Assembly (NCBI GenBank): GCA_025454875.1
Contig: JALONP010000008.1
Coordinates: 38,616 to 102,615 of the forward strand
Origin: Bacteroidia bacterium
GTDB taxonomy: Bacteria > Bacteroidota > Bacteroidia > UKL13-3
Direction: 5' to 3'
DNA: 64,000 bases
A program made the position numbers and the translations under genes. The notes beneath the pieces were generated by a model. It searched no databases. It worked only from the letters and a program-made list of their open reading frames with translations, and had not been told where the DNA came from. Each line of letters begins with the position of its first letter. Positions within the stretch are counted from its first letter, which is position 1. Below, one piece after another: positions 1,953 to 63,068 of this stretch.

Positions 1953-1992
1953 ATTTGACTATTTGGTAATATGCTTATGAAAGCTATCAAAC

Positions 1993-2020
1993 AAAAAAGG
2001 CTGCAATTGCAGCCTTTTTT
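1993..2020. terminator. Bidirectional rho-independent terminator between the convergent protease and aconitase genes.
   Basis: AAAAAAGGCTGCAATTGCAGCCTTTTTT: perfect hairpin flanked by an A-run and a T-run. Confidence 0.7.
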
Positions 2021-2038
2021 GTTTGATAAAAAATCACT

Positions 2039-4306
2039 TTAAGCAGAAATACTTGCCCTAATAATATTGAGCGCTCCTCCTGCTTTAAACCATTCGATTT
2101 GTTGTTCATTGTACGTATGGTTTACACTAATTTCATCTGTACTCCCATCCGCATGGTTAAGTACCAATACCAAAGGTTTATTTGGAGTAAATGATGTTAG
2201 TCCTTTGATATCGATTACATCGTCTTCTTTAATTTTATCGTAATCGTTTTTATCAGCAAAGGTGAGTGCAAGCATTCCTTGTTTTTTCAAGTTGGTTTCG
2301 TGAATACGTGCAAATGATTTAACCAATACAGCACGCACACCCAAATGCCTTGGCTCCATTGCGGCATGTTCCCTTGACGAACCTTCACCGTAATTTTCAT
2401 CACCCACTACTATGCTTCCAATTCCTTGTGCTTTGTATTGGCGTTGTACTTTAGGCACCGACTCATACGTTCCAGTTAATTGGTTTTTTACACTGTCGGT
2501 TTTTTCGTTGAAATAATTCACTGCACCAATCAGCATATTGTTGGAGATATTATCTAAGTGGCCACGGTATTTTAACCAAGGGCCTGCCATCGAAATATGA
2601 TCTGTTGTACACTTGCCTTTTGCCTTAATCAATAATTTAAGTCCAGTTAGGTCTGTACCTTCCCAGGCAGCAAATGGGTCTAACAATTGCAAACGATCAG
2701 ATGTTGGAGAAACAGCTACTTGAACCGTGCTACCATCAACAGCAGGTGCAATAAATCCTGCGTCTTCAACAGCAAATCCTTTGGTTGGCAACTCATCACC
2801 TGTTGGTGCATCCAAGGTTACTTGCTCACCTTTTTCGTTGGTAAGGGTATCGGTAAGTGGGTTAAAGGTTAAATCGCCTGCTATTGCCAAAGCTGTTACC
2901 AACTCTGGTGAACCCACAAATGCAAACGTGTTTGGATTGCCATCGGCACGTTTGGCAAAGTTGCGGTTAAATGAGTGTACGATGGTGTTTTTCTCAGCTT
3001 TTTCGGCACCAACACGGGCCCACATTCCAATACATGGACCACAAGCATTGGCAAATACTTTGGCACCAATCTTATCAAATGTTTCTAAAAATCCATCGCG
3101 CTCAATGGTGTACCTTACTTGCTCTGAACCTGGAGTAATGGTGAATTCTGCTTTGGTTTTTAACCCTTTTGCGGCAACTTGTTTGGCCAATGATGCAGCA
3201 CGCGCTATGTCTTCGTATGAAGAGTTGGTACATGAACCAATCAATCCTACTTCAACCTTGGTTGGCCAACCGTTTTTAACAGCTTCCTCTTTCATTTTAG
3301 ATATAGGAGTTGCCAAGTCTGGTGTAAACGGACCATTCAAATGCGGCTCCAACTCACTCAAGTTAATTTCAATAATTTGATCAAAGTATTGCTCAGGGTT
3401 TGCGTATACCTCTGGATCGCCTGTTAAATGTTCTTTAATGGCATTGGCAGCATCAGCCACATCTGCGCGGCCTGTGGCTCTTAGGTAACGCTCCATGCTT
3501 TGGTCGTAACCAAATGTAGAAGTAGTTGCCCCAATTTCAGCACCCATATTGCAAATGGTTCCTTTTCCAGTACAACTCATTGAAGTTGCTCCTTCGCCAA
3601 AGTATTCAACAATGGCACCTGTTCCACCTTTTACCGTAAGGATTCCGGCAACTTTTAAAATCACATCTTTTGGAGATGTCCAGCCGTTTAATTTACCCGT
3701 TAATTTCACCCCAATCAGTTTAGGCCACTTGAGTTCCCAAGGCAAGCCTGCCATTACATCACATGCATCTGCTCCTCCAACACCAATGGCAATCATTCCG
3801 AGTCCCCCGGCATTTACTGTATGCGAATCGGTACCAATCATCAATCCACCTGGGAATGCATAATTTTCGAGCACTACTTGGTGAATAATACCTGCACCTG
3901 CTTTCCAAAATCCAATTCCATACTTGTTTGAAACAGACGCTAAAAAATCGTACACTTCTTTGTTTTCAGTTACCGCTTTGGTTAAGTCGGTAGATGAACC
4001 AACTTGCGCTGTAATCAAGTGATCGCAGTGCACAGTTGAAGGAACTGCTACTTTGGGTCTACCCGCTTGCATAAATTGCAAAAGCGCCATTTGAGCTGTT
4101 GCATCTTGCATGGCTACCCTATCTGGTGCAAAATCAACATAACTTTTACCACGCTCAAATGCTTGAGTAGCTTTACCCGCACTTAAGTGGCTATACAAAA
4201 TTTTCTCAGCTAAGGTTAATGGTTTGTTTGTGGCTTTTCTAGCTGCTTCAATACGCTCCGCCATGCTTGCGTATACAGCCTTAATCATGTCTAAATCAAA
4301 TGTCAT
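2039..4306 (-). CDS. acnA: Aconitate hydratase (755 aa, Bacteroidota/mitochondrial type).
   Basis: Fe-S ligand and active-site motifs ([26 protein letters not shown]). 755-aa length. Confidence 0.9.
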
Positions 4307-4468
4307 ACAAAAATTGAATAGAAGGTTTATGTTAAGCTATTGACCAAAATGCTGAACAATTTACCATTACGTAAAGCGGTTTTGGAAAAAGCACTGCAAG
4401 TATACGGATTATTAGCTTCAAAGGCGATTCCGTTAACGAATTTATTGCAAACTTGATATACTTGTAAT

Positions 4469-6400
4469 ATGAAACAATTGAAATTAGGCACGCTACTCTG
4501 TTTAATTGGCTTTCAGCTTATTACAAATGCCACTCCTCTTACTGATAGTTTAAAACTACAACTTACTGGAAAAGCAGATACCAACCAAGTAAAGCTGTTA
4601 AGCGAGTTGTGTTGGCAGTATTGCACCCTTGCCACAGATACAGCAATTGTTTATGGAAACAAAGCGGTAAGCATGGCATTAACACTTAACGACTCTAACC
4701 ATATTGCACAAGCGTACAACGATTTAGGAATTGCCCATTATTATGCTGGCCATTTTAATGAGGCCATAGCCGCCTATGAACAATCACTTGCAATCCGACT
4801 AAAACTTGGAAATGTTCGGAATGTGGCGGCAGTGTACAACAAACTTGGCATCGTGTACCAAAAGTTATCAAAATTTACTGAAGCACTTTACTACAATTTA
4901 CTCGCGTTAAAATTATTCGAGTCGATAGGCTATAATATGGGCGTTTCGTATGGTTACAACAATATCGCCATTATTAACCAAAATTTAGGTGATTATAAAA
5001 AAGCGTTGTTTTACCACGAACGGAGTTTAGCCATCAAACAAAAAATGAACGACTCTAATGGATTGGCTGGCTCCTATTCGAATATGGCAAATATTTACAG
5101 GCAACTCCACCAATTTGACCAAGCATTGATATACTACAATAAAGCACTGGCCATGTTAACCTATACCAAGGATATGGAATACCTCTCTTCTACGTACAAT
5201 AATTTAGGAGAAACGTATGTGATGATGGAAAAACCCAAACAAGCAATACCCAACTTGCTTAAAGGAATTGCTATCCGCGAAAAAAATACGGATGTAAAAG
5301 CATTGGTGTCTTCGTATATCAATATGGCCGATGCTTATGCACTCTTGAACAATGCCAAAGAAGAGCGATATTATCTTGAAAAAGCAAAGATGCTCAGCAA
5401 GCAACTTCCCGGAATGCGTGAGCAGGCAGTATTGTATCTTAAATTGGCAAATGCTGCTTACCAATTAAAGGATTACCAGTCGGCAAGTAGGTATTACCAA
5501 CAACAAATTGCCCTTAATGATAGCTTGTTAAATGAAGAAGTGGTGCGTAAAGTAGCTGAAATGGAAACCCTTTATGAAACAGAAAAAAAAGAGGCTTTGA
5601 ATACCGTTTTGTTGCAAGAGAATAAAATTCAGCAATTGGCAATTGCTACCAAACGGTTTCAGTTGGGATTGCTTGCGGGTGTGCTTGCCTTGGTTTTGGT
5701 TACAAGTTTTTTGGTTTACAGCCGATACAAGCACAAAAAAGAACAAGAACTCATTACCACCAAAATTTATGCAGAACAGCAACGATTGCAATCCATGATT
5801 GCTACACAAGAAGAAGAACGTAAGCGTATTTCAGGTGAACTGCACGATGGTATTGGACAACTCTTATCGGTGGTGCGCATGAACCTTTCGGTTATCGAAC
5901 AACAAAACGTTTCTACCAATATCAACCAAACCATTCATTTGTTAGATAATGCTTGCAACGAACTCCGAACCATTTCGCACCAATTAATGCCAGCGGTTTT
6001 AATTAACAAAGGAATTGGCGGTGCCCTAGCCGAGTTAATTAGCAACCTAAGCAAAGCAAGCAAGTTGCATATAGATTATTATGCCGACCCTTTGGATGGA
6101 TTAAAACCTGAGCAAGAAATTCATTTGTTTCGAATCATACAAGAGCTGCTAAACAATGCAGTTAAGTATGCCGAAGCCACGGAACTGCATCTAACATTGC
6201 ATATTGAGGGCAATGCACTTAAGGTAATGGTAAGTGATAATGGTAAAGGATTTGACACAAAATTAGTAACCACCGGAACTGGAAATGGTTGGCACAATAT
6301 CAGCACACGCACAAGGCTTTTAAATGGTGTATTGGATATTGAATCAGCACCTAAGCAAGGAACTTCTGTATTTATTGAAATACCAATTACGCCTAATTGA
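4469..6400 (+). CDS. TPR-repeat sensor histidine kinase (HisKA_3/NarL-type DHp + HATPase_c). No cognate RR is adjacent.
   Basis: Signal peptide, about 8 TPR-like repeats, a TM helix, H-box ELHDGIGQLLS and ATPase motifs (DNGKGF). Confidence 0.8.
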   Translation: MKQLKLGTLLCLIGFQLITNATPLTDSLKLQLTGKADTNQVKLLSELCWQYCTLATDTAIVYGNKAVSMALTLNDSNHIAQAYNDLGIAHYYAGHFNEAIAAYEQSLAIRLKLGNVRNVAAVYNKLGIVYQKLSKFTEALYYNLLALKLFESIGYNMGVSYGYNNIAIINQNLGDYKKALFYHERSLAIKQKMNDSNGLAGSYSNMANIYRQLHQFDQALIYYNKALAMLTYTKDMEYLSSTYNNLGETYVMMEKPKQAIPNLLKGIAIREKNTDVKALVSSYINMADAYALLNNAKEERYYLEKAKMLSKQLPGMREQAVLYLKLANAAYQLKDYQSASRYYQQQIALNDSLLNEEVVRKVAEMETLYETEKKEALNTVLLQENKIQQLAIATKRFQLGLLAGVLALVLVTSFLVYSRYKHKKEQELITTKIYAEQQRLQSMIATQEEERKRISGELHDGIGQLLSVVRMNLSVIEQQNVSTNINQTIHLLDNACNELRTISHQLMPAVLINKGIGGALAELISNLSKASKLHIDYYADPLDGLKPEQEIHLFRIIQELLNNAVKYAEATELHLTLHIEGNALKVMVSDNGKGFDTKLVTTGTGNGWHNISTRTRLLNGVLDIESAPKQGTSVFIEIPITPN

Positions 6401-8899: not shown

Positions 8900-9634
8900 A
8901 TGGCTATACTTATTTTTTTTATTCTACACTGGTATTTATCCTTATTCGGACAAACATTTTTCTTACACCGTTATTCAGCTCACAAAATGTTCACCATGAG
9001 TAAAGGTTGGGAGCGTTTCTGGTATATTTTTTCATGGGTGTCTCAAGGTTCTTCTTATTTAAATGCAAGAGCATATGCTATTCTTCACCGCATGCACCAT
9101 GCTTACAGCGATACTGAAAAGGATCCGCACTCTCCTATTTTTTTCAAAGAAGTATTTACCATGATGTTGTACACCCGCAAAATTTACAATGGTGTATTGC
9201 ATGGAACCATGCAAGTTGAAGAAAAATTTGACCGCAATTTCCCGGAGTATGCTAAGATTGACCGCATTGCTGATGCTTGGCCAACACGTATTGGCTTCGG
9301 ACTTGCCTATGTTGCATTTTACGTTGCGTTTGCAACACAATGGTGGATGTACTTGCTGCTTCCCATTCATTTTTTAATGGGACCAGTGCATGGAGCAATC
9401 GTAAACTGGGCAGGACATAAATACGGATACCGTAATTTTGAAGAAGGCGATCATTCTAAAAACACATTGATTATCGACTTTTTGATGCTAGGCGAATTGT
9501 TCCAAAATAACCACCACCATGCAGGTTCACGACCAAATTTTGCTGCCAAATGGTGGGAAGTAGATCCTGTGTATCCAGTGATGCGCTTGTTTCACAAACT
9601 GGGAATCATCCAACTTGCGCCAGCAAAAAGTTAA
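8900..9634 (+). CDS. Acyl-CoA (delta-9-type) fatty-acid desaturase.
   Basis: Three histidine boxes: HRYSAHK, HRMHHAYSD, HNNHH. Confidence 0.8.
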   Translation: MAILIFFILHWYLSLFGQTFFLHRYSAHKMFTMSKGWERFWYIFSWVSQGSSYLNARAYAILHRMHHAYSDTEKDPHSPIFFKEVFTMMLYTRKIYNGVLHGTMQVEEKFDRNFPEYAKIDRIADAWPTRIGFGLAYVAFYVAFATQWWMYLLLPIHFLMGPVHGAIVNWAGHKYGYRNFEEGDHSKNTLIIDFLMLGELFQNNHHHAGSRPNFAAKWWEVDPVYPVMRLFHKLGIIQLAPAKS

Positions 9635-10612
9635 TTATTTATGGTATTGGTATTGGTAAGAGGTTACCAAAACTAATTTATCTTTTTGGTTGTACTGTAA
9701 CGTGCTCAATACAATGTTGGATTGTGCCTCATATTTACGTGCATATGATTTGGTAAACTTCGAACGCTGTTTATCCTTAAACTGATAACGTATAATGTTT
9801 TTAGCATCATCATATTCAAGCGTAGTCAATGATTCCAATTTGCCAGTGTAATCAAATTTTTCCAATTTGGTGAGCAAGCTATCAGCGGTGTAAGATGAAA
9901 CTACACGAACCACTCTGCTCTTTTGATCCCTATTTTCACTTACTACAACAAAACTTCCATCGGGGTATTGGTTGTAAGATTTGCAAATTTGGTGGTTTTC
10001 AACTGTTGATTTTATCTGTTCACCCGCTACGTTGCAAGCATAAGTATATCTTCTATAAAGCTTACTTCTTCTGTTATAATAACGCGATTCGGTTCGGTTT
10101 CCCAGAGAATCATAATCGCTCTCCACTTTAAAACTCGGCTTCCCCTTTGCCGTGATGGTTTCGCTTTTGATCATTTTACCAGCCGCATTGTACGAAAACA
10201 ACTGTGTGTTTAACAGTTTTCCATTTTTGCCCTTACAAACAACAGCCTCTATTTGGCCATTGTTATTGAGTTGGTAAGTATGATCGCGAATGGTATCTCC
10301 CTTTACAATGTAGATCATACGTGTGAGCGTAGAGTCGTTTGTGTATTCATTAATGGTTGTGCGCTGGGGTTTATTGTTTTTATATTGGGTAAATTGGATT
10401 TGTTGACCCACGCGGTTGTAACTGCCCGTACCAATAATAAATTGTTTGCCCTTTTTAGTTTGTGTTTCGGTTATTTCTTTAATCTGGTGTTGTTTAAAGT
10501 AAGTCGAATTGTATTTCCACCAAAAAAATTCATTGGAGCTCATTAAATGACCTTGAGCATACACATTCAAGAGGAAGCTAATCAATAGCAAAAACGAAGA
10601 AATTTTTTTCAT
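9635..10612 (-). CDS. Hypothetical secreted protein/lipoprotein.
   Basis: Signal peptide MKKISSFLLLISFLLNVYAQ. No recognisable catalytic motif. Confidence 0.5.
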   Translation of the reverse strand: MKKISSFLLLISFLLNVYAQGHLMSSNEFFWWKYNSTYFKQHQIKEITETQTKKGKQFIIGTGSYNRVGQQIQFTQYKNNKPQRTTINEYTNDSTLTRMIYIVKGDTIRDHTYQLNNNGQIEAVVCKGKNGKLLNTQLFSYNAAGKMIKSETITAKGKPSFKVESDYDSLGNRTESRYYNRRSKLYRRYTYACNVAGEQIKSTVENHQICKSYNQYPDGSFVVVSENRDQKSRVVRVVSSYTADSLLTKLEKFDYTGKLESLTTLEYDDAKNIIRYQFKDKQRSKFTKSYARKYEAQSNIVLSTLQYNQKDKLVLVTSYQYQYHK

Positions 10613-10689
10613 ATGGGTTAGGATTACATAGTTAAGTAAATTTATATGTATATCAAAGTAAAAATAATTCTTATCCTACCTCATCTATT

Positions 10690-11050
10690 CTTGGGGCTGG
10701 CCGCCCCAAACCGCCTCACTTTTTTTCTGTGAAAGAAGAAGTAAGCGCAACCTTCATGATACAGATACTTTTGTTACAAACTACATCATTTATTTCCCCC
10801 GCAACCCAAGCCACTTCGTTCGTGGGTTGCTTATCTAAGGCCACCGCTAAAATAAACGCTTTGTTTGTCACACAAAACAATCTAAGGCAAAGGAAGTGGT
10901 TAGGATTATTTTTTTTCGAGAGACAAAGTGCCGTTCCGATAGCTATCGGAATCCACCAATTGAGCGAAATCAACCCAAATTGGCCTAAGTAGCATTGGGC
11001 ATAGCATATAATGAGGGTTGATTTGGAATTGGTGGTCTGCTTTAAAAGGT
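10690..11050. repeat. Copy A of a ~360-bp structured non-coding repeat, in inverted orientation relative to copy B at 14465-14835.
   Basis: About 90% identical to the reverse complement of 14465-14835, with a near-identical ~170-bp core. Has a terminal GGGGC-TGGCC-GCCCC hairpin and a long imperfect inner hairpin (CCACCAATTCCAAATCAACCC ... GGGTTGATTTCGCTCAATTGGTGG). The ORFs across it are not conserved as proteins. Confidence 0.6.
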
Positions 11051-11129
11051 AACAAAAAGGACAGTTAAAGAACTTAAGGCTCCCTATTTATCATTTCAGT
11101 GTTACTGGTATTATTGCGGACATTCCTAT

Positions 11130-12803
11130 TTAAAACAGCCCGCTGATATTTCCATCAGCATCCACATCAATTTGCTCTGCCGCAGGATTATTTGGTAGAC
11201 CTGGCATACGCATGATTTCACCTGCCATTGGAATCATAAATCCCGCTCCAGCCGCCAATTCAATTTCACGAATGGTGAGGGTAAACCCAGAGGGCCTGTT
11301 TATCTTTTTTGCATCGTCAGAAAAAGAGTATTGCGTTTTGGCCATGCACACAGCCAAGTTTGCGTAGCCCAACTTTTCAATGCGTTTCATATCGGTAAGT
11401 GCTTTGGGTTGGTATGCTACAGAACCTGCTCCATAAATTTTAGTAGCAATGGCTTCAATTTTTTGTTTAATAGGCCAATCAAGTTCATACACATGGTTTA
11501 AATTCGTTGCATTGGTTTGGTCAAGAATTTGTTTGGCCTTGGTAGCTAAATCAATTGCGCCTTCACCTCCTTTTGCCCAAACCTGGCTGAGCGAAACTTG
11601 AATATTTTTTGCCTTACACAGTTCCAATAAAGCCTCCGTTTCTGCGGCCGTATCTGTTGGAAATTGGTTAATGGCAACCAATGCCTTTAATCCAAATGAT
11701 GCTACATTTTCAAGGTGCTTTTCGAGGTTGGCAAATCCAGCTTTAAGTGCGTCCACATTTTCGGCAGTGAGTTCTTCTTTGGCAACACCACCATGCGATT
11801 TTAATGCACGAATGGTTGCAACCAGTACCACTAATTGTGGCGCAATACCTCCCATTCGGCATTTGATATCCAGGAATTTTTCGCCACCCAAATCAAATGC
11901 AAACCCAGCTTCGGTTACCACGTAATCACTTAAACTCATTGCAGTTTTGGTAGCAATTAAAGTATTGGTTCCTTGTGCAATATTGGCAAACGGTCCACCA
12001 TGAATAATTGCAGGATTGCCTTCGAGTGTTTGCACCAAATTGGGCTTAATAGCATCTTTAAGCAAGGCAGCCATTGCACCATTCGCTTTTAAATCTTTGG
12101 CAAAAACGGCATTGCCATCTTTTGATTTACCAATATAAATATTGCCCAATCGTTCTTTAAGGTCTGTGAGGTTTTTGGATAAACACAAAATGGCCATTAC
12201 CTCTGATGCAACGGTTATATCAAATCCAGTTTCACGAGGAGATCCGTTGCTTTTGCCACCCATTGCAACCATGATGTGACGTAACGAACGGTCGTTCATA
12301 TCCATCACGCGTTTCCAAACAATACTAAGCGGATCAAGTTGTACCAAGGGATTTTTGGCTTGCAGTTGGTTTTCAATTAAAGCTGATAACAGGTTGTGGG
12401 CTTTTTCTACAGCTGCAAAATCACCTGTAAAATGTAGGTTGATATCTTCCATGGGAACCACTTGCGCATACCCACCGCCAGTGGCACCACCTTTCATCCC
12501 AAATACAGGACCTAATGATGGCTCACGCAATACAACCGTTGATTTAAGTCCAATTTTATTAAGCCCTTCATTTAACCCTACCGATGTGGTTGTTTTACCT
12601 TCACCAGCGGGAGTTGGAGTGATTGCAGATACCAAAATCAATTTGCACTGCTTTATTTTATTTTCGTCAATATAATGCAAGGGAAGTTTAGCCTTGTATT
12701 TACCGTAGGGAATTAAATCGTCAGCCGGAATATTGAGTTTGTTTGCAATTTGGGTAATGGGTTGCAACGTGGCTTTTTGTGCAATTTCAATATCTGTTAT
12801 CAT
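11130..12803 (-). CDS. fhs: Formate--tetrahydrofolate ligase.
   Basis: P-loop EGKTTTSVGL, length 557 aa, strong conservation throughout. Confidence 0.95.
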   Translation of the reverse strand: MITDIEIAQKATLQPITQIANKLNIPADDLIPYGKYKAKLPLHYIDENKIKQCKLILVSAITPTPAGEGKTTTSVGLNEGLNKIGLKSTVVLREPSLGPVFGMKGGATGGGYAQVVPMEDINLHFTGDFAAVEKAHNLLSALIENQLQAKNPLVQLDPLSIVWKRVMDMNDRSLRHIMVAMGGKSNGSPRETGFDITVASEVMAILCLSKNLTDLKERLGNIYIGKSKDGNAVFAKDLKANGAMAALLKDAIKPNLVQTLEGNPAIIHGGPFANIAQGTNTLIATKTAMSLSDYVVTEAGFAFDLGGEKFLDIKCRMGGIAPQLVVLVATIRALKSHGGVAKEELTAENVDALKAGFANLEKHLENVASFGLKALVAINQFPTDTAAETEALLELCKAKNIQVSLSQVWAKGGEGAIDLATKAKQILDQTNATNLNHVYELDWPIKQKIEAIATKIYGAGSVAYQPKALTDMKRIEKLGYANLAVCMAKTQYSFSDDAKKINRPSGFTLTIREIELAAGAGFMIPMAGEIMRMPGLPNNPAAEQIDVDADGNISGLF

Positions 12804-12967
12804 ATACTCACGAATGTAGGTAATTTACAGAAAAACGAAAGTGTCGGTTATTGCAGTAATATGCTCATATTACCACACACTTTTACATGATGTAAACGTT
12901 AATGTGACAATTCTCAGAACCAAATTGCAGATAAATTTCCCTATTGTTGTTTTTCTGAATTCAAGAA

Positions 12968-14041
12968 ATGGCTAAAATTAAATTTAACAACAGCAACCCC
13001 GAATTTTTTAACACCCTCAAAAGCCGTGTAAATGCTTACTTCGAAGACAAAAGCATTAAAGAAACTGGAAATTACAAGCTCTACACCAAAACGCTTATTC
13101 TTTCGGCCACGTTGGTTTTATCGTATTTGTGGATGGTATTTTTCACACCTGAATCAAACTTGCTTTCCATTTTGGTATGCATTGTAATGGGTGTAAATGT
13201 AGCCGCAATTGGTTTCAATGTAATGCATGATGGGGCTCACGGAAGTTATTCATCAAAAGAATGGGTAAATAAATTCATGGGCTTTAGCTTAAATATTTTA
13301 GGTGGCAATGTTTACTTGTGGAGCCAAAAACACAATATCAACCACCACTCATATACCAATGTTGAAGGTTTAGATGATGATATTGATATCAAACCGTTTA
13401 TTCGTGTGCACAGCACGCAAAAAAAGTATTGGTTCCACCGTTTCCAACATTATTACAGCTTGTTGCTTTATGGTTTAACGTATTTGTTTTGGGTTTTTAT
13501 GAACGACTTTAACAAATACTTTACCGGTAAAATTGCCTACCATACCAAAATGCGCAAAATGGATTTGCCAGAACATTTTAACTTCTGGATTTCGAAAGTA
13601 TTGTATGTGTTTTTCTTCATGATTTTGCCTTTTTATTTTGTGGGTATTGTACCAACCATTGTTGGGTATTTGGTAATGGCCTTTACCGCAGGTATTGTTA
13701 TTTCTATTGTGTTTCAATTGGCGCATGTGGTTGAAGAAGCAACCTTTGTTACTCCCACAAGTGATACAATGAAAATTGAAACTGAATGGGCCAAACACCA
13801 AATTAATACAACCGTTAATTTTGCTACACGCAGCAAAAGCATGAGTTGGTTATTGGGTGGATTGAACTTTCAAGTTGAACACCATTTGTTCCCACGCATT
13901 TCACATATTCACTATCCAGAAATCAACAAGATTGTGAAACAAACATGTGCTGAGTTTGGCATTATGTATAAAGAATTTCCAACGGTTTTAAGCGCTATTC
14001 GATCACACTTATTGCATTTGCGCTCGGCAGGTATTGCATAA
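12968..14041 (+). CDS. Membrane fatty-acid desaturase (front-end/acyl-lipid type, no cytochrome b5 domain).
   Basis: His boxes HDGAHGSYS, HNINHHSYTN, QVEHHLFP; multiple TM segments. Confidence 0.8.
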   Translation: MAKIKFNNSNPEFFNTLKSRVNAYFEDKSIKETGNYKLYTKTLILSATLVLSYLWMVFFTPESNLLSILVCIVMGVNVAAIGFNVMHDGAHGSYSSKEWVNKFMGFSLNILGGNVYLWSQKHNINHHSYTNVEGLDDDIDIKPFIRVHSTQKKYWFHRFQHYYSLLLYGLTYLFWVFMNDFNKYFTGKIAYHTKMRKMDLPEHFNFWISKVLYVFFFMILPFYFVGIVPTIVGYLVMAFTAGIVISIVFQLAHVVEEATFVTPTSDTMKIETEWAKHQINTTVNFATRSKSMSWLLGGLNFQVEHHLFPRISHIHYPEINKIVKQTCAEFGIMYKEFPTVLSAIRSHLLHLRSAGIA

Positions 14042-14464
14042 ACTACTCTTCGGTAAACTGGTCTGACTTGTTAGTTAAAAGTAGATCTAATCTGATACAT
14101 TCTAACACTTGTAGCATTTGATTTCAAATGATTCGAAAGCTGGAATAGTTAATACTTGTTTTTCTTCATAAGTTGTGATTCAATCTAATTCTTTATGCCG
14201 TCAAAACGCATTTTACTGACGCTTGCTTAAGGACGAAATCAGCCGTTCAACCTTTTACGAATTTGCTTCCAAATTCCGAAGGAGTTCGTTTTCTGGTGTG
14301 TATTAAAAGGATTATACCTTACCACCTGTTACCAAATAGTCAGCATTACAGAAATCTATTAGATGAAGTTGAATATTATATAGTACTCTTAACACTCAAA
14401 TCATATAGAAATGACGTTTTAAGTTCTTTAACTTTTCTTTTGTTACCTTTTGGTTCTGCAAAAG

Positions 14465-14835
14465 GTAACGCCAAAAGCAGACCACCAATTCCAAATCAAC
14501 CCTCATTACATGCTATGCCCAACGCCACTCAGGCCAATTCGGGTTGATTTCGCTCAATTGGTGGACCCCAACCGCACTTTGTCTATCAAAAGAAATAATC
14601 CGAACTAGAACCTTTGCCTTAGATGGTTTTGTGTAACAAACAAAGCGTTTATTTTAGCGGTGGCCTTCGATAAGCAACCCACGAACGAAGTGGCTTGGGT
14701 TGCGGGGGAAATAAATGATGTAGTTTGTAACAAAAGCATCGGTAGCATGAAGGTTGCGCTTACTTTTTCTTTCCCAGAGAAAAAGTAAGGCGGGTTTGGG
14801 GCGGCCAGCCCCAAGAGAACATCAAATACGGTATA
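14465..14835. repeat. Copy B of the ~360-bp structured non-coding repeat (inverted relative to copy A).
   Basis: Same conserved core and terminal GGGGCGGCCAGCCCC hairpin as copy A. Its inner end has a perfect 10-bp palindrome GTTACCTTTT...AAAAGGTAAC (14441-14470). Confidence 0.6.
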
Positions 14836-14909
14836 AATCCATTTTACTAGTAATGTAACGGAATACACATAACTTTAACATCAGAATCACCGTCAACTTA
14901 AAAAACCTA

Positions 14910-16181
14910 TTAAATCATCTCAAATCCAGTATACGGAACCAACGCCTTTGGGATGCGAATGCCTTCGGGTGTTTGGTTGTTTTCAAGTAAGGTCGCTACA
15001 ATACGTGGCAATGCCAAGGCACTTCCATTTAAAGTGTGCACCAATTGATTTTTACCCTCTTTGTTTTTAAACCTGCACTTTAACCTATTGGCTTGAAAGC
15101 TCTCAAAGTTCGAGGTCGAACTCACTTCAAGCCATCTTTTTTGTGCAGCACTGTATGTTTCAAAATCATAGGTCAATGCAGATGCAAAACTCATATCGCC
15201 TCCACACAAATGCAAAATGCGGTAAGGTAATTCCAGTTTTTCCAGTAACTGTTTTACATGCATAACCATTTCATCAAGTATGGCATACGATTGGTCGGGA
15301 TGTGCTATTTGCACAATCTCTACTTTATCAAATTGGTGCAAGCGGTTAAGTCCTCTTACATGTGCACCATAGCTTCCAGCCTCTCTTCTAAAGCAAGGAG
15401 TATAACCTGCGTTTTTAATCGGTAGCTCTTCTTCTTTTAAAATAACATCACGGTACAAGTTGGTAATAGGCACTTCGGCAGTTGGAATCAAGTACAAATC
15501 ATCTACACCAATATGGTACATCTGACCTTCTTTATCGGGCAATTGCCCAGTACCAAATCCACTCTCAGCATTTACAACATGCGGAGGCATTACTTCGTGG
15601 TACCCTGCCTTTATTGCTTCATCTAAAAAGAAGTTAATCAACGCACGTTGTAACCTGGCACCTTTGCCTTTGTACACTGGGAAACCTGCACCTGTAATTT
15701 TATTACCTAACTCAAAATCGATGAGTTGGTATTGAGCGGCCAATTCCCAATGTGGTTTGGCATCATCGGGCAATACAGGGATTGCACCGCTTTCAAAAAC
15801 AGTAATATTCTCTTCGGCAGTGCGTCCTTCGGGAACCGAAGCATGCGGCAAGTTGGGCAACGTAACCAACACGTCATAAACAGATTGTTCTAATTGTGTA
15901 AGTTGCTCCTCGAGTTGTTTGCCTTTTTCTTTTAGTGCTGCAGTTTGCATTTTAAGTTGTTCAGCTCCTGCTTTATCGCCTTTTTTCATCAACTCACCAA
16001 TTTGTTTGGCCAACACATTCCCATCGGCAAGTGTTGTTTCGAGTTGTACCTGTGCAGCACGTTTTTGTTCGTCTAATGCAAGCAGTTCATCAATAACCTG
16101 CGCTGCATTGGCAACATGTTTTTTAGCCAACCGCGTTTTAACATCGGCTGTATTTTCCCTTATGTAATTTAGTTGCAGCAT
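14910..16181 (-). CDS. serS: Seryl-tRNA synthetase.
   Basis: N-terminal coiled coil, class II aaRS core motifs, 423 aa. Confidence 0.95.
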   Translation of the reverse strand: MLQLNYIRENTADVKTRLAKKHVANAAQVIDELLALDEQKRAAQVQLETTLADGNVLAKQIGELMKKGDKAGAEQLKMQTAALKEKGKQLEEQLTQLEQSVYDVLVTLPNLPHASVPEGRTAEENITVFESGAIPVLPDDAKPHWELAAQYQLIDFELGNKITGAGFPVYKGKGARLQRALINFFLDEAIKAGYHEVMPPHVVNAESGFGTGQLPDKEGQMYHIGVDDLYLIPTAEVPITNLYRDVILKEEELPIKNAGYTPCFRREAGSYGAHVRGLNRLHQFDKVEIVQIAHPDQSYAILDEMVMHVKQLLEKLELPYRILHLCGGDMSFASALTYDFETYSAAQKRWLEVSSTSNFESFQANRLKCRFKNKEGKNQLVHTLNGSALALPRIVATLLENNQTPEGIRIPKALVPYTGFEMI

Positions 16182-16187
16182 TGGTTC

Positions 16188-16631
16188 TTAGTTGTTTTCG
16201 TTCACCACCACTTTGGTCATCACATCACCTTGTCTAATTTGGTCAATTACCTCAAGGCCTTCTACCACTTTACCAAACACCGTATGGTTGCGGTCGAGGT
16301 GTTGGGTATTTTGGCGGTTGTGGCAAATAAAAAATTGTGAGCCGCCTGTATTTCTTCCAGCATGTGCCATGCTCAATACCCCACGATCGTGGTATTGGTT
16401 ATCACCTGTAAGTTCGCAATCAATTTTATAACCCGGGCCACCAGCACCTGTTCCGGTTGGGTCGCCACCCTGAATCACAAAATCAGGAATTACACGGTGA
16501 AAACTCACGCCATCGTAAAAACCACTTTTGGCGAGCTTTACAAAATTAGCAACGGTATTGGGTGCATCTTTTTCAAAAAACTGAATTTTCATCACGCCCT
16601 TGGCTGTATGTATTTCGGCTGTTGTACTCAT
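16188..16631 (-). CDS. ppiB: Peptidyl-prolyl cis-trans isomerase, cyclophilin type.
   Basis: [19 protein letters not shown] cyclophilin signature. Confidence 0.9.
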
Positions 16632-16800: not shown

Positions 16801-19014
16801 ATGAACCACGTTCCACACCTTATTTCTGATTTGGCGCTCATTTTATTGGCGGCTGCGTTTGTAACCTTACTGTTTAAATGGCTTAAGCAGCCGGTAGTGC
16901 TAGGTTATATTATTGCCGGATTGTTAGTGAGTCCGAACTTTACCTTGTTTCCAAGTGTGACCGAACTCAAAAGCATTCAGATTTGGGCCGAGATTGGTGT
17001 TATTTTTATGCTGTTCAGCTTGGGCTTGGAGTTTAGTTTTAAAAAACTACTTAAGGTTGGCAGCACAGCAACCATTACAGGTTTGTTCGAAATTACCTGT
17101 ATGTTGTTACTGGGTTTTGGGGTTGGCCAAGCATTGGCATGGAGCAAAATAGACAGCCTTTTTTTAGGAGGCATCATTGCCATTTCATCTACAACCATCA
17201 TCTTCAGAGCGTTTGACGAACTCAATATCAAAACCAACAAATTTGCAAGTTTGGTAATTGGCGTTTTGGTAATAGAAGACCTTGTTGCAGTATTGTTGTT
17301 GGTGCTTTTGTCAACAGTGGCGGTTAGTCCAACTGTTGAGGGTAGTGAGTTGGTAGGTTCTATTGTAAAGCTGCTTTTCTTTTTGGTGTTGTGGTTTATT
17401 TCAGGAATCTTTTTGTTGCCTACTTTCCTAAAAAAGGCAAGCAGGCTCATGAGTGACGAAACAACCTTAATTGTTGCAATTGGTTTGTGTTTAGGAATGG
17501 TATTGCTTGCAGCGGGTGTTGGTTTTTCAGCAGCATTAGGCGCCTTTATTATGGGCAGCTTGCTTGCCGAAACAACACATGCCGAACGCATTGAGCATGT
17601 ATTTAAACCAGTAAAAGATTTATTCGGGGCCATCTTCTTTGTATCGGTTGGAATGCTCATTAACCCCGAGGTGCTTTATGCCCATATTGGTCCTGTGCTT
17701 GCCATTACATTGGCTGTGGTTTTGGGTAAATTATTGTTTGTTACCATTGGCGCTTTGTTAAGTGGCCAACCTTTAAACCACGCCATACAAGCAGGAACAA
17801 GCATGGCCCAAATTGGCGAATTCTCTTTTATCATTGCTACCCTCGGACTTACCTTGGGTGTTACAGGTTCGTTTTTGTACCCCATCGCAGTTGGTGTTTC
17901 TGTAATTACCACTTTTGCTACACCGTACATGATTAAACTTGCCGATCCTCTTTACAACTGGCTGGTTAAACATTTACCGCAAAGGTGGACCAACTCCTTA
18001 AACCGCTACAGTGCAGGAACCCAACAAATAAAAGCTGAATCGGATTGGAAAGTGGTGTTCACTGCATTTACCCAAGTAATGGTTATAAACAGTGTGCTCA
18101 TTGTTGCCATCATTCTCATTTTTAAAAATGTGATTGAACCCGTATTTTGGATATCGGGGTCGGTTGGCAGTTTTGTAGTTGCCTTGTTAGCACTAGCAGC
18201 CATATCACCTTTTTGGTGGATGCTCACAGCTAAAAAAATCAATAAGCCCTCGTATACCCAATTGTGGCTTAACAAAAACAACCGAGGCCCCATTATCATG
18301 CTCGAAATTTTGCGCGTAAGCATTGGCATCATTCTCATTGGGGTATTGTTTGTACAGTTTTTTTCAACGGCCATTGCGTTTAGTCTTGCTGCAGGCATTA
18401 TGCTCATTGTTGGTTTTGTGTTTTCGCGCAAGCTGCATGCTTTTACCTTGCGCATCGAAAAACGTTTTTACCACAATTTGTATTTGCGCGAGTCGATGCA
18501 ACCCAAATCGGTGGTGTCGCATTTATTGCCTTGGGATGCACATTTGGCTTATGTAGATATTGAACCCAACTCTGATTGGCTTGGCAAACCTTTAGGTGCC
18601 TTGCAACTGCGCGAGCAATACGGTATTAATATTGCCATGATAGAGCGCGGAAACCAAACCTTGATGGTTCCAGGAAAAACGGAGCGCTTGTATCCGTACG
18701 ACCGCATTGCCTTAATTGGAACCGATGAACAAATTACCCAGTTTAAAGAAGCCCTGGCTGCAACTGCAGTGCCTCAAACCCAAACGCTTGCTGTTTCGGC
18801 AGTGGCATTGGTGCAGTTTAAAGTAAATCCGGGTTTTGTGTACTTGGGTAAAAGCATACGCGAAAGTGCCCTACGCGAACGGTCGCAAGGATTGGTTGTG
18901 GGCATTGAGCGCAACGGACAGCGGTATTTAAACCCCGAATCTACTTGGGTATTTGAGTTGGATGATGTGGTGTGGATTGTGGGCGATGAATCTAAAATAA
19001 AAGCGCTGTACTAA
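16801..19014 (+). CDS. CPA2-family monovalent cation:proton antiporter with C-terminal RCK/TrkA-C domains.
   Basis: About 12 TM helices, then two soluble TrkA-C-like domains; 737 aa. Confidence 0.75.
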   Translation: MNHVPHLISDLALILLAAAFVTLLFKWLKQPVVLGYIIAGLLVSPNFTLFPSVTELKSIQIWAEIGVIFMLFSLGLEFSFKKLLKVGSTATITGLFEITCMLLLGFGVGQALAWSKIDSLFLGGIIAISSTTIIFRAFDELNIKTNKFASLVIGVLVIEDLVAVLLLVLLSTVAVSPTVEGSELVGSIVKLLFFLVLWFISGIFLLPTFLKKASRLMSDETTLIVAIGLCLGMVLLAAGVGFSAALGAFIMGSLLAETTHAERIEHVFKPVKDLFGAIFFVSVGMLINPEVLYAHIGPVLAITLAVVLGKLLFVTIGALLSGQPLNHAIQAGTSMAQIGEFSFIIATLGLTLGVTGSFLYPIAVGVSVITTFATPYMIKLADPLYNWLVKHLPQRWTNSLNRYSAGTQQIKAESDWKVVFTAFTQVMVINSVLIVAIILIFKNVIEPVFWISGSVGSFVVALLALAAISPFWWMLTAKKINKPSYTQLWLNKNNRGPIIMLEILRVSIGIILIGVLFVQFFSTAIAFSLAAGIMLIVGFVFSRKLHAFTLRIEKRFYHNLYLRESMQPKSVVSHLLPWDAHLAYVDIEPNSDWLGKPLGALQLREQYGINIAMIERGNQTLMVPGKTERLYPYDRIALIGTDEQITQFKEALAATAVPQTQTLAVSAVALVQFKVNPGFVYLGKSIRESALRERSQGLVVGIERNGQRYLNPESTWVFELDDVVWIVGDESKIKALY

Positions 19015-20183: not shown

Positions 20184-21707
20184 TTAAGCTTGTTCACTTT
20201 CATTCTGAGGTTGTCTTAGTTTATAATAAATTTCCAAACTTTCAATTAATGCATCTTTAAGCTGCAATCCATTGTTAAATCGAAGTTGTTGCCAGTGTCG
20301 AAGATTAAATCCTACACTTGCATCTGTTTTTGCATCTGGCTGATTACGCATTAGTAAAATAAAATTCTCTTGCTCATACCCCTTTGCTCTATTCAGCCCC
20401 ATTAAAAAGCCCACTTCATGATAAACATTTATGTTTTTTGTACTGAGATCAGCAATAAGCAACCCGGTATTATTAATCAATTCGAGTATTTCATCTGATA
20501 TGGTATAGGCATGGCCTTTATTCACCTCATCAATACGAATATGCTTTATTTTCAAATCAAGGTTGTGTCTACGGTTTGCCTCAGCTATTGCTTCCTCAAT
20601 GGCCTGCTTTACTTCTTTAGATGCTTCATCAAACTGCATAGAGATAAATACATTGCGTGACCGTGCCTTTAGAATTGTATCGTATACTACAATTAAGTCA
20701 TTGGCTGTAATATCAGCAATCGTGTAAATGTGGTTATAGAGTACCCAGTTTTTGAACGACTTCCTGAAATCACCATGCTGTAAGTTCAACTCGTAATAAA
20801 CAAATGCACTAAATAAAGCAGGGCTATTACATTCTTTCAAAACAGCATGTTGTTGATAGATTACATTGACATTATTAACAGCCTGCATTACTTTATTTAT
20901 TTCTGCATCATTGTTCTGGATAATCTTCTTTTGCAGCAATAACTTGAACAGTTCCAAAAGCACTGTACGCTTTATAATTACTTCTTCACCATTATCCTTC
21001 CATGTTTTGAACGATTCAGAAATTGCCTGTAATACTTCTAAATCAACTCTGTCCTTTACTTTTCTTGCAAAATAAAAATGAGGGCCAAAAGATGGATTAT
21101 TCTTTAATTTTTCATCAGTGAATATGTCTACTTCATCCAATATCAACCTTAAATTTTCTTCCGATGTAAGCGGTACAGACTTACTATTAATGTTATGGAA
21201 AATCACTCTTTTATACTCTTCACTTTGGGGTGTATCTGGAAAGAGAATTAAACAAAAGGGTGTCATATAATCATTAAACTCTGCCGCTTCAGGAGCTGCA
21301 CTCAGTCGGTGGTTTCCATCTATTCTGAAAAAAGGCTTATTTGTTTTCAACCAACCTTCTGGTATGTCAATAATTACTTTGTGTACCCCAGATTGAGTGG
21401 ATTTAATGCTAAAAGAATCCACATTCGATTTAAATGTTTTTCGGTCAAGAATATTCTTTAGCGGGTCAATGCCGGAAAGCCCTTTTGTAAAATCATATTT
21501 GAGGTTGTATGACAGTATTACCTCAGGAAAGAATAGATACTCTTTATCTTTTAAAAAGTTTACGATTGCTTCCCGTTGTTCGTCAATTAAGTTACGCTGA
21601 TAGCTAAGATCAGCTTCAGAACTTCTTGCTAAATCACCCATTGGGGCAAAGCCCCGAACGCAGGTGAAACCGCCTAAGGATTGTGATAATATGCCTTCTA
21701 ATCTCAT
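20184..21707 (-). CDS. DndB-like DGQHR-domain (ParB/Srx-fold) protein fused to a C-terminal nucleoside-2-deoxyribosyltransferase/SLOG-like Rossmann domain.
   Basis: The N-terminus matches the DGQHR family pattern: QRNLIDEQREAIVNFL...FFPEVILS, then FFRIDGNHRLSAA. The last ~150 aa follow the NDT-like pattern NVFISMQFDEASKE...LLIADLS..NINVYHEVGFLMGL. Confidence 0.6.
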   Translation of the reverse strand: MRLEGILSQSLGGFTCVRGFAPMGDLARSSEADLSYQRNLIDEQREAIVNFLKDKEYLFFPEVILSYNLKYDFTKGLSGIDPLKNILDRKTFKSNVDSFSIKSTQSGVHKVIIDIPEGWLKTNKPFFRIDGNHRLSAAPEAAEFNDYMTPFCLILFPDTPQSEEYKRVIFHNINSKSVPLTSEENLRLILDEVDIFTDEKLKNNPSFGPHFYFARKVKDRVDLEVLQAISESFKTWKDNGEEVIIKRTVLLELFKLLLQKKIIQNNDAEINKVMQAVNNVNVIYQQHAVLKECNSPALFSAFVYYELNLQHGDFRKSFKNWVLYNHIYTIADITANDLIVVYDTILKARSRNVFISMQFDEASKEVKQAIEEAIAEANRRHNLDLKIKHIRIDEVNKGHAYTISDEILELINNTGLLIADLSTKNINVYHEVGFLMGLNRAKGYEQENFILLMRNQPDAKTDASVGFNLRHWQQLRFNNGLQLKDALIESLEIYYKLRQPQNESEQA

Positions 21708-21712
21708 ACTTG

Positions 21713-22549
21713 CTATTTTATGATTTCACTCATTATTTCAAATTTCTCAAGCAATGTTTCTACAAACTGCTGCTTGGTAATGAAATACTTTTTGTATTTA
21801 CTTTCTAATGCTTTGCTGTAAGTAACATTAATGCGATAGTACTCTTTACCATTTGCCTTAACTGTTGTTGACATTTCAATAACTTTTGCCGAAGGCATAA
21901 ACAAAATGTGTTCGCCAATTTCAGCCTTATCAGGATCATAGGCGATGCCTACCAAATAAAAAGCATGATGTGCCCGGAAAGTGTTCTTGCCTATACTTAA
22001 AATAAGCTGGTCTGCTTTTTTTACCTGAAACCTTGATTTTACCTGTAAGTATATTGGGAGAAAAACTCCTTCTTTCAAGATAATTAAATCTATTCCCCTA
22101 GTATCTATGACAGGTCGGTACACATTTAATAACCCCTGGCTATTGAGCAAAATAATTTCTTTCACTCTGTCTTCAGCTATATTGCCTTTGGCCTGACTTG
22201 ACAAACCTGAAATATCTACGAGTGTTTCGTCTTCTTCTTCCTCCGCATCTTCAATTGATGGGGCAGCAGTCTTTGAAATAGTAATCAACTGCTGTGTTAC
22301 ATTTACTGACACTACATCACCCGGCTTTAATTTGTTACGCTTGTAAAATGTAGTAAGGCCAAATATGCGGTAATGATCTGCATTGTAATTTTTTGAAGCT
22401 ACTTGCTTCTCATCATAAAGTTTCACCTGCACCTGTGCAGTTTCATTAGGTAAGAGATCTCGTACCTGAGCCGGTACGTAAATAAACCCAAGACGGGTTT
22501 CTACCTCTATCAACTTTCGCTGGTATGTTATGGTTTGGGTATCTTTCAT
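21713..22549 (-). CDS. Small predicted nuclease: N-terminal B3-like (EcoRII-N/BfiI-like) DNA-binding pseudobarrel plus C-terminal PD-(D/E)xK nuclease core.
   Basis: N-terminal region LGFIYVPAQVRDLLP...YRIFGLTTFYKRNKLKPGDVVSV looks B3-like. C-terminal ...IDTRGIDLIIL...YLQVKSR fits a D-x(n)-(E/Q)xK core. The start overlaps the S-gene stop by ATGA. Confidence 0.5.
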   Translation of the reverse strand: MKDTQTITYQRKLIEVETRLGFIYVPAQVRDLLPNETAQVQVKLYDEKQVASKNYNADHYRIFGLTTFYKRNKLKPGDVVSVNVTQQLITISKTAAPSIEDAEEEEDETLVDISGLSSQAKGNIAEDRVKEIILLNSQGLLNVYRPVIDTRGIDLIILKEGVFLPIYLQVKSRFQVKKADQLILSIGKNTFRAHHAFYLVGIAYDPDKAEIGEHILFMPSAKVIEMSTTVKANGKEYYRINVTYSKALESKYKKYFITKQQFVETLLEKFEIMSEIIK

Positions 22550-23955
22550 GATGCTGTATTTAAAATCAGTTTTTCAATTTCCTTTTTGGCAGCTTCAAAA
22601 TCCATTTTCGCTTGTACCAAAAGTTGATGAGCTTCTTCTGTTCTCACTCTTACTTCCTTGGCAATCATTTGCTGAACCGATAGTGGTGGGGAAGGAATAA
22701 GTAAATGCTTTACATCATCCGGAGACAAATGCCCATTTGTAGCACCGGTTACATTACGTTTGATTTCAATTTGCGATGGTTTGCACCGTAAAAAAGCATA
22801 CACAAAATAAGGATCGAACTTGCTTTTATCGGTTAGAAACTTTACGATATCACCCCCTAAATAATATTTGCCAGGATATGACCAGTAACCCACCTTACCG
22901 ATAGTAGCTCCGGTGATTACTACCAAAATATCATCTTGCTTTAGTTCCTGATAAGCATTGAACACATCTTTTGCAGTTAATAGATTATCAAGGTCAATTG
23001 TGCCATCCATATTAATGGAGTTAATCTGCACAACTTTATTATCTCCTTCTTTTTCCTCCTGCTTTGGTAAATAGCCTTTCACTAAAAGGCCGGATAATAT
23101 TTGCTTCAGAAACACTGCACCATAATTCCCTTTTGCTATTGATTCCTTTACATCGTAGAAATAGGTTTTATTAAAAAATGGATCAAACCTATTACCCGAA
23201 ACTTTGGTAAAGGAGGTATTGAATGTTCGGTTTTCAATTGTATTTGCAGGTTCTGGTGGTAAGGAAATACCCAACTCATTCAAAAGGTAATCATCAATAC
23301 CATCTAACAGCTTTGCCGATTGATGTTCAGTAGACTTTCTTTGTATTCTTGCTTCAGTATAAAGTTTAGCAATTCGCTCTTGTTCATCAATTGGTGGTAC
23401 TGGGATTTTAAGAGCCCTTACTTCCTGTGCATTGACATTAGTCATTCCTGCTATTTGACGACTAACTGCATCAATTTGCATTCTGCCAATACTTGAGTTT
23501 ATAAAAAATGAAACATATTCAGGTAGCAACTTTGAATTATCCAATTCTACTCGAATAAAGTATGAAGCAAAAACCCAATCGCCATCTTCATGAAAAACAG
23601 CACATTTACCAACAAGCTCCTTAGAGTTTGTTCTGTTGAAAAGAATATCTCCTTTTCTGACTTTGTAACGTTTAAATTCTATCTCATCAAACTGAATGTA
23701 TTTCAAATCGTTTAATCTCCATTCCTCATCTTGCAGGTTTAGCATCCGAAGCATCGGATAGCCTCCATTTTCTTTGCTTGCAAGCGAAGAAGAGCCATAT
23801 TGTAGGCGTAAAATTGCTTTGCCTAAACGCTCAATCTTGTAAGGCGATTTCTCAATGGTTTTTAGAAACTTCTCATAAAGTAAATGGTAATTGGGATCCC
23901 ATCTAATAATTCCAAGCTCGCCCCGATTAAGTAAGAAATACTTATCTACACTCAA
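22546..23955 (-). CDS. hsdS: Restriction-modification specificity (S) subunit with two target-recognition domains.
   Basis: Two TRDs, each followed by a conserved helical spacer (IPVPPIDEQERIA / LIPSPPLSVQQMIA); 469 aa. Confidence 0.85.
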   Translation of the reverse strand: MSVDKYFLLNRGELGIIRWDPNYHLLYEKFLKTIEKSPYKIERLGKAILRLQYGSSSLASKENGGYPMLRMLNLQDEEWRLNDLKYIQFDEIEFKRYKVRKGDILFNRTNSKELVGKCAVFHEDGDWVFASYFIRVELDNSKLLPEYVSFFINSSIGRMQIDAVSRQIAGMTNVNAQEVRALKIPVPPIDEQERIAKLYTEARIQRKSTEHQSAKLLDGIDDYLLNELGISLPPEPANTIENRTFNTSFTKVSGNRFDPFFNKTYFYDVKESIAKGNYGAVFLKQILSGLLVKGYLPKQEEKEGDNKVVQINSINMDGTIDLDNLLTAKDVFNAYQELKQDDILVVITGATIGKVGYWSYPGKYYLGGDIVKFLTDKSKFDPYFVYAFLRCKPSQIEIKRNVTGATNGHLSPDDVKHLLIPSPPLSVQQMIAKEVRVRTEEAHQLLVQAKMDFEAAKKEIEKLILNTAS

Positions 23956-23963
23956 ATCGGGGC

Positions 23964-26171: not shown

Positions 26172-26181
26172 GCCGATATTT

Positions 26182-27012: not shown

Positions 27013-27064
27013 TCGTCAAGTTATCTCGGTCATTTTTATTTTTTATTGGTCTCGATGAATCGAC

Positions 27065-44256: not shown

Positions 44257-44329
44257 TGTCCGATGGTGTAACTGGCAACACGTCTGATTTTGGTTCAGAA
44301 GAGTCTAGGTTCGAGCCCTAGTCGGACAA
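44257..44329 (+). tRNA. tRNA-Gln (anticodon TTG).
   Basis: Cloverleaf: acceptor TGTCCGA/TCGGACA, D-arm GTGT-AACTGGCA-ACAC, anticodon stem TCTGA/TCAGA with loop TTTTGGT, T-arm CTAGG-TTCGAGC-CCTAG. CCA not encoded. Confidence 0.8.
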
Positions 44330-44340
44330 CAGAAAGGTAA

Positions 44341-59807: not shown

Positions 59808-60119
59808 AAAATGCGAATTGTTTGTTCAATGTTCGTTTTTTATACCTGTATTCCCAATCTGCATTACCCACATTTGGTTTAGGCTGACCAATTAACCATT
59901 CAGTGCAATTTTCCGCTCAACCTGCTATTTTTCCATTGGTGGAATCATGTATGGTATTTTCAGTCAATTCCATTTACATTCGAATGGTAACCAGTGTAAT
60001 GACATGAAAACAACCACACTTATTTTATTATTGGGTTTTGGCTCATTGATACCCACTAAATGCAGCATTGCCAAAAAAGAACCTAAACCAGTTGAAAAGC
60101 CGACCTCTGCGGTATTGGA

Positions 60120-61960: not shown

Positions 61961-61974
61961 CAACTACAACCTCA

Positions 61975-63006: not shown

Positions 63007-63068
63007 AATGGATATTGATTTGTTATAACCAAAACTAAGCATAAAAATGAACTTCTAAAAATGGGTTA

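Follow-up and report, generated by a model that had tools for sequence, protein, structure and literature searches.

Two inverted copies (A and B) of a hairpin-rich, non-coding element were found around the fhs gene and a fatty-acid desaturase gene in the 64-kb stretch of DNA analysed here (the window), which is part of a 360-kb contig of a metagenome-assembled Bacteroidia genome (JGI metagenome 3300037462). Pfam searches identified fhs at 11130-12803 on the minus strand, the 357-aa desaturase at 12968-14041 on the plus strand (FA_desaturase, 135.6 bits) and serS at 14910-16181 on the minus strand. Copy A (10647-11126, plus strand, about 480 bp) was located between the start of a hypothetical gene of 325 aa (9635-10612, minus strand, unannotated) and the fhs stop codon (11130-11132). 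Copy B (14370-14869, minus strand, about 500 bp) was inverted relative to A and was flanked by the desaturase stop (14041) and the serS stop (14910). Both copies are very probably independent insertions of one lineage-specific, non-autonomous DNA transposon, a transposable element of the miniature inverted-repeat kind (MITE), whose length across copies was 480-617 bp.

The inverted-repeat search of the window showed two pairs of arms, 10704-10916/14588-14800 (213 nt, 92%) and 10952-11043/14474-14565 (92 nt, 95%), and blastn aligned 355 nt of A and B at 89% identity (E about 1e-133). Pairwise alignment of the two copies showed a central stretch of 68 nt that was identical. An earlier reading of the letters alone (the sequence-only reading) had described an inverted pair of about 90% identity with a nearly identical centre, and both points held. 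The boundaries that it gave, 10690-11050 and 14465-14835, were too narrow, and alignment with three more copies moved them to 10647-11126 and 14370-14869. Copy A had lost 9 nt and gained many substitutions in its left end, which was degenerate, and half of its hairpin H4 was deleted; in copy B it was the right end that was degenerate. Both left ends pointed outward from the bracketed genes. No third copy was found in the 64-kb window by blastn with the element. A weak blastn and inverted-repeat match at 61940-61997, which falls within two convergent genes or at their ends, was rejected as chance.

At least six copies were present in the same metagenome, and DNA was available for five of them: A, B and one copy on each of three other long contigs (L010, L011 and L012). 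The copies were traced via a spurious open reading frame (ORF) of 85 aa on the minus strand of copy A, for which a protein search returned four other "hypothetical proteins"; the sixth copy (P0122) was known solely from a spurious ORF. All copies were intergenic, and three of the five lay between convergent genes. A relative of about 90% nucleotide identity (Logan SRR24300498) had at least two copies, at sites other than those of the window. The sequence-only reading was right in calling the sequence repeated and in asking about copy number and context in relatives.

The insertion was seen most directly at L010, where the copy occupied the gap between convergent genes for a dipeptide epimerase and an Omp85-family protein. 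The same site was empty in two other contigs, L013 (from the SRR24300498 sample) and L014 (76% epimerase identity), and in both of them the two genes overlapped by 4 nt (L013, 9-mer at 10979-10987; L014, 3356-3359). The empty junction in L013 read ...ATCT TTAGCCTAA AACGGATAGCC... and the filled junction in L010 read ...ATCA TTAGCCTAA (TGTATATCC...GGATATTCAT) TTAGCCTAA AATGGATAGCC..., with the 617-bp element in brackets. The 9-bp target-site duplication TTAGCCTAA was perfect at both flanks in L010 and the sequence was single in L013. The 9-bp target contains both stop codons, and its duplication in L010 left both genes intact. L010 is a clean insertion of the textbook type, with a target-site duplication and an empty site. 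It postdates the split between the window species and the species of L013 and of L004, a contig from the SRR24300498 sample. Between these species, 33-39% of 4-fold-degenerate sites differed in fhs, serS, the desaturase and the epimerase.

Alignment of the left ends and the reverse-complemented right ends of all copies showed terminal inverted repeats that were imperfect, about 27-30 bp long and bounded by TG...CA. The aligned motif was TG(T/A)ATATCCG(Y)(W)A..TAC(Y)AGTAA, the consensus of the ends was 5'-TG(T/A)ATATCCG..TAC(C/T)AGTAA...CGGATAT(A/T)CA-3', and the element ends read TGTATATCCG.../...CGGATATTCA. For L010 the inverted-repeat search returned terminal arms of 11 nt that were 91% complementary. 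In copy A the left repeat (10647-10672, plus strand, TGTATATCA...AAGTAAAA) was degenerate, and the right repeat (11100-11126, minus strand), which read GGAATGTCCGCAATAATACCAGTAACA on the minus strand, had four mismatches to the right-end consensus of the family. The left repeat of copy B (14842-14869, minus strand) was TGTGTATTCCGTTACATTACTAGTAAAA, and its degenerate right repeat (14370-14396) read TGAATATTATATAGTACTCTTAACAC on the plus strand.

Between these ends the element is made of a chain of palindromic modules. H1 and H2 come first, then a core that holds an invariant hairpin, an 18-nt hairpin that is optional, H3, a likewise optional module of about 100 nt, and H4. Hairpin H1 (TTGGGGC-TGGCC-GCCCCAA; A 10691-10709, plus strand; B 14796-14814) corresponds to the outer GGGGC-loop-GCCCC hairpin of the sequence-only reading, and the long inner hairpin described there (CCACCAATT...AATTGGTGG) was recovered as H3 (CCACCAATTGAGCGAAATCAACCC...GGGTTGATTTGGAATTGGTGG; A 10953-11035, plus strand; B 14482-14564). 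H2 (CTCACTTTTTTTCT...AGAAGAAGTAAG) was located at 10713-10746 on the plus strand in A and at 14758-14791 in B, and it showed one compensatory CG-to-AU change in L011. The conserved core (A 10767-10908, plus strand; B 14596-14737) differed by 3-8% among copies and contained the invariant hairpin GCAACCCAAGCC...GTGGGTTGC (A 10801-10830). The perfect 18-nt hairpin TTCCGATAGCTATCGGAA (A 10934-10951, plus strand) had been taken for an insertion in copy A only; it was indeed absent from B, and also from L011 and L012, but it was present in L010 and is therefore a polymorphism of the family rather than a private insertion. Hairpin H4 (GTTACCTTTTG-CAGAAC-CAAAAGGTAAC; B 14442-14469, minus strand) was whole in four of the copies (B, L010, L011 and L012), and A had lost half of it. 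The optional module of about 100 nt was carried by L010 and by the copy at the start of L004.

The element showed no coding capacity, in line with the sequence-only reading, which had called it non-coding because translations across the two copies were not conserved. The internal ORFs had no Pfam match. Two frames were open through the core by chance; copy A was frameshifted upstream of the core and copy B had an in-frame stop, and the substitutions in both open frames were mostly non-synonymous (non-synonymous:synonymous about 2:1 or more). A small-protein reading of the core (plus-strand frame MLLLQTTSFI..., minus-strand frame CVTNKAFILAV...) was rejected on the same stops and frameshifts in A and B, on the same excess of non-synonymous changes and on a start that was not conserved.

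Taking the MITE feature list of PMC4596501 as a working definition, we assigned the family to the MITEs because it has inverted repeats, a 9-bp duplication, an empty site, no coding capacity and multiple copies. Bacterial MITEs themselves are well known; this family is a previously undescribed, lineage-restricted one. The element inserts into AT-rich DNA, either directly at stop codons and terminators or immediately past them, and produces a 9-bp duplication; closely related genomes differ in whether a given site is filled. It would be moved in trans by a DDE-type transposase from a parent insertion sequence (IS) that makes 9-bp staggered cuts. Its stacked palindromic modules may let it sit harmlessly between convergent genes, possibly as a terminator-like spacer. 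Its copies exchange sequence by recombination or gene conversion.

Searches for the element elsewhere were consistent with a young, lineage-restricted family. Outside the sample, nothing turned up among GTDB genomes, contigs of JGI metagenomes, phages, plasmids and 1.8 billion protein representatives, and no copy was seen in any other lineage. PLSDB plasmids and INPHARED phages had no blastn match to the element. The exact 21-mer TTTATTTCCCCCGCAACCCAA, which spans a C/T site that is polymorphic between copies, had 0 matches in the metagenome and genome contig collections, and degenerate seeds back-translated from the alignment of the spurious ORFs gave no confirmed match in the same collections. 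A hidden Markov model (HMM) of the spurious ORFs, run against the 1.8 billion protein representatives, matched only the same sample and P0126, a repetitive protein from outside the sample that was judged spurious. A 51-aa ORF came up as a singleton in an exact-cluster look-up. The hairpin pattern CCCCCGCAACCCA...TGGGTTGC gave a single match, on both strands, at 2164-2201 of an IMG/VR sequence (L003), which is an unrelated palindrome and was taken as chance.

The genes between the two copies were compared with those of relatives. The divergent fhs/desaturase pair was kept in four relatives (L005-L008; 83-87% FHS identity) with other neighbours and with no element nearby; of the two desaturases in the window, only the 357-aa one is this conserved partner of fhs. 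In L004, which is about 90% identical, serS, the desaturase and fhs had the same order and orientation as in the window, and serS and the desaturase were separated by a 44-bp bidirectional terminator with no copy B. Copy B was therefore inserted between genes that were already adjacent. On the other side of the pair, the right end of copy A lay 3 nt past the fhs stop in the window, and in L004 the left end of an element lay 6 nt past the same stop. Comparison of the arrangements showed that an inversion between A and B cannot convert the window arrangement into that of L004, and the L004 copy past fhs is therefore an independent insertion, 4 nt off and in the opposite orientation to copy A of the window. 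From this gene order, fhs and the desaturase are an ancestral divergent pair that the element did not bring along as cargo, and the inverted layout of A and B is an incidental result of two insertions into the pair's 3' flanks.

Copy A in the window and the copy past fhs in L004 were both inserted within a few nucleotides after a terminator-like hairpin in fhs. In the window this hairpin lies in the last fhs codons (11141-11160, minus strand), and its T-run includes the stop codon. The degenerate left end of copy A starts 35 nt upstream of the ATG at which the hypothetical gene of 325 aa begins (10612). JGI calls a 309-aa version of this gene, starting at 10564; either start puts the element in its promoter region.

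Four observations weigh against the MITE interpretation. The perfect duplication was seen in L010 only; when the junctions were read by eye, copy A had at best a degenerate one (6/8) and B, L011 and L012 had none. At the site of copy B, the terminator present in L004 was replaced rather than cleanly interrupted, and 327 bp of non-coding DNA that separate the desaturase stop from the right end of copy B (14042-14369) are unaccounted for. This segment had no counterpart in L004 and no match in the other fetched loci, and it came either together with copy B or separately. Neither a transposase nor a parent IS with matching ends turned up in the window, where Pfam covered all ORFs but the four at 58389-63042 (378-6400 and 16801-19014 by precomputed assignments), or in about 200 kb of other fetched loci; the end motifs had no further matches in the window or the fetched loci. 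Because no such parent was found, we infer mobilisation in trans and leave the IS family unassigned. Duplications of 9 bp are typical of IS4, IS1, IS256 and ISLre2-type elements; TG...CA ends are found more typically in IS3, IS21 and IS481. Finally, a dead MITE under neutrality is expected to diverge evenly, but the ends differed by 23-55% and the core by 3-8%.

This uneven divergence carries the strongest of the alternatives, in which the copies are paralogous genes for a structured non-coding RNA (ncRNA), or a MITE with a selected functional core, and the inverted ends are secondary. Between pairs of copies, the terminal 50-60 nt differed by 23-55%, the 142-nt core by 3-8% and H3 by 0-8%, against 33-39% at the neutral sites given above. 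Compared with the window copies, the element fragment in L004, which comes from the other species, had 6-28 differences over 54 positions of the terminal inverted-repeat region and only 2-4 differences over 42 positions of H1-H2. Set against neutral sites, the low divergence of H1-H2 and of the core means that the interior changes several-fold more slowly than neutral sequence. Also in favour of an RNA were the folding of the plus strand of copy A (z = -3.5, compared with -1.6 for the minus strand), the local-hairpin model, in which 96.8% of cells were paired, the compensatory change in H2 and several A/G differences that are A-U to G-U changes on the plus strand.

Other results spoke against an RNA. 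Neither window copy matched Rfam 15 at the gathering score or at E<=10, so that the structured ncRNA family suggested in the sequence-only reading found no counterpart there, and the long form of L010 gave only a chance microRNA match (E = 0.6). No promoter-like or terminator-like site was conserved in the element, either among Bacteroidota-type TAnnTTTG motifs searched manually or in a sigma-70 and terminator scan. When folding was limited in span, the two strands of the five copies were about equal, with the plus strand lower in three and the minus strand lower in two, and the main stems were perfect Watson-Crick palindromes, as for hairpins that act at the DNA level. In the covariation analysis of five sequences, in which most pairs were invariant, two pairs were changed on both sides, and 21 of 500 shuffles also reached this number. 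Whole hairpin modules were gained or lost between copies, and the family was limited to one genus-level lineage.

Exchange between copies can by itself keep the core uniform. Similarity among the copies was mosaic: alignment columns 76-178 grouped A and B against L010, L011 and L012, and columns 316-376 grouped A and L010 against B, L011 and L012. These conflicting groupings show that recombination or gene conversion between copies occurs, and such exchange explains the near-identity of A and B, 3.2 kb apart, in their left and central parts. Either conversion or selection slows change in the core. We regard ncRNA genes or a selected core as improbable overall. The narrower proposal, in which the hairpin-rich core (10767-10908 together with H3) would be a functional passenger on a MITE chassis, such as a structured RNA, a cis-acting DNA or a termination module, and would be kept by selection, is likewise unlikely; if true, it would explain why change in the interior runs at about one fifth of the neutral rate, or below, alongside decaying transposon ends.

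The inverted copies could also serve as a recombination switch that flips the 3.2-kb fhs-desaturase segment. Inverted repeats of about 480 bp with 89% identity and the identical 68-nt stretch, 3.2 kb apart, would be suitable for this, and variants in the left half that were private to A and B show past exchange between the two. However, no inverted isoform was seen, and the sole other assembly of the locus (L002, an identical sequence from another sample) broke inside both repeats and was uninformative on orientation. The pair is moreover divergent and self-contained, so that inversion would change the promoter of neither gene, and we consider a switch very unlikely.

The remaining two explanations are barely credible. 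The sequence-only reading had suggested a composite element that mobilised fhs and the desaturase, with A and B as its arms, and the inverted copies with left ends outward do bracket exactly two genes, but the arms carry no transposase, the outer 9-nt flanks AAATTTATA and TAACTTTAA matched (by eye) at only 5/9 positions in AT-rich DNA, and the idea was contradicted by the element-free pair in relatives and by its place next to serS in L004. An IS200/IS605-derived palindrome-associated element (PATE), or a leftover omega (guide) RNA of a TnpB/IscB element, would share a non-coding, hairpin-rich and intergenic character and a length of a few hundred base pairs, but the element has a 9-bp duplication and terminal inverted repeats some 27-30 bp long, which do not arise by single-strand Y1 transposition, no TnpA, TnpB or IscB gene was found in the window, and there was no match to HEARO or any other RNA family. 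Of the earlier idea of mobile DNA, the non-coding, hairpin-rich, repeated and mobile-derived character stood, and each specific identity offered for it did not.

The MITE interpretation was compared with known systems. Several MITEs have been described in Porphyromonas gingivalis (Bacteroidota), namely MITE239, MITE464, MITE700 and BrickBuilt, with inverted repeats of the IS5-family type (GAGACCTTTGCA) and duplications of 2-5 bp (PMC4596501). The present element shares with bacterial MITEs a length below 1 kb, the lack of a transposase, terminal inverted repeats, a target-site duplication and several copies per genome, as well as an almost exclusively intergenic location, hairpin formation and filled and empty sites between strains. 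It differs in lying near the upper end of MITE sizes (480-617 bp, where MITEs span about 50-1000 bp), in its 9-bp duplication and TG...CA termini, and in an interior that is more conserved than the ends, which is the reverse of the usual pattern. Other bacterial MITEs are Correia/NEMIS of Neisseria and RUP of Streptococcus pneumoniae; the comparison with these and with the P. gingivalis MITEs was one of features.

PATEs and TnpB/IscB omega RNAs are also non-coding, hairpin-bearing, intergenic and derived from mobile elements; however, IS200/IS605 PATEs and omega RNAs have no terminal inverted repeats or target duplication, both of which are present here, and they insert 3' of a fixed tetra- or pentanucleotide. 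With composite transposons the locus shares two inverted copies of one mobile element around two genes, but it differs in its transposase-less arms, in the same gene place in relatives that miss one or both arms, and in the lack of a convincing outer duplication. Modular intergenic palindromes, often downstream of genes and with possible terminator or mRNA-stabilising side effects, are shared with repetitive extragenic palindromic sequences (REP), bacterial interspersed mosaic elements (BIME) and enterobacterial repetitive intergenic consensus sequences (ERIC). REP/BIME and ERIC are much shorter and do not combine inverted ends with a target duplication, and REPs are moved via RAYT.

Other features of the window were annotated by Pfam. 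A second desaturase gene of 244 aa was located at 8900-9634 on the plus strand (FA_desaturase, 43.7 bits), and a cyclophilin gene was located at 16188-16631 on the minus strand. The region at 20184-27979, all on the minus strand, looks like a defence island. It comprised two large ORFs with no Pfam match (20184-21707 and 21713-22549), a type I specificity subunit (Methylase_S, 22546-23955), an N6_Mtase with an HSDR_N domain (23964-26225) and an AbiEii/AbiEi toxin-antitoxin pair (26182-27012 and 27065-27979). A tRNA-Gln (anticodon TTG) at 44257-44330 was the sole Rfam/ARAGORN match in the window. In L011 the copy lies in an intergenic region of 1093 bp, of which about 470 bp (10428-10895), past the element's left end and upstream of a NifU-like gene, were unannotated.

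Two transposon insertions account for the inverted repeat around fhs and the desaturase, and the MITE interpretation removes the ideas of a mobilised metabolic gene pair and of a new regulatory RNA. It adds a MITE family with a clean pair of filled and empty sites and a 9-bp duplication in an uncultured Bacteroidia lineage whose mobile elements are poorly catalogued. The repeats also break short-read assemblies: the L004 contig had the left end of the element at one contig end and the right end at the other, and L002 and L004 end inside the element because assemblers break at dispersed repeats. They also form homologous tracts in inverted orientation, about 480 bp long, through which inversions and gene conversion can arise, and the slower evolution of the core raises the question whether MITEs may carry selected non-coding passengers.

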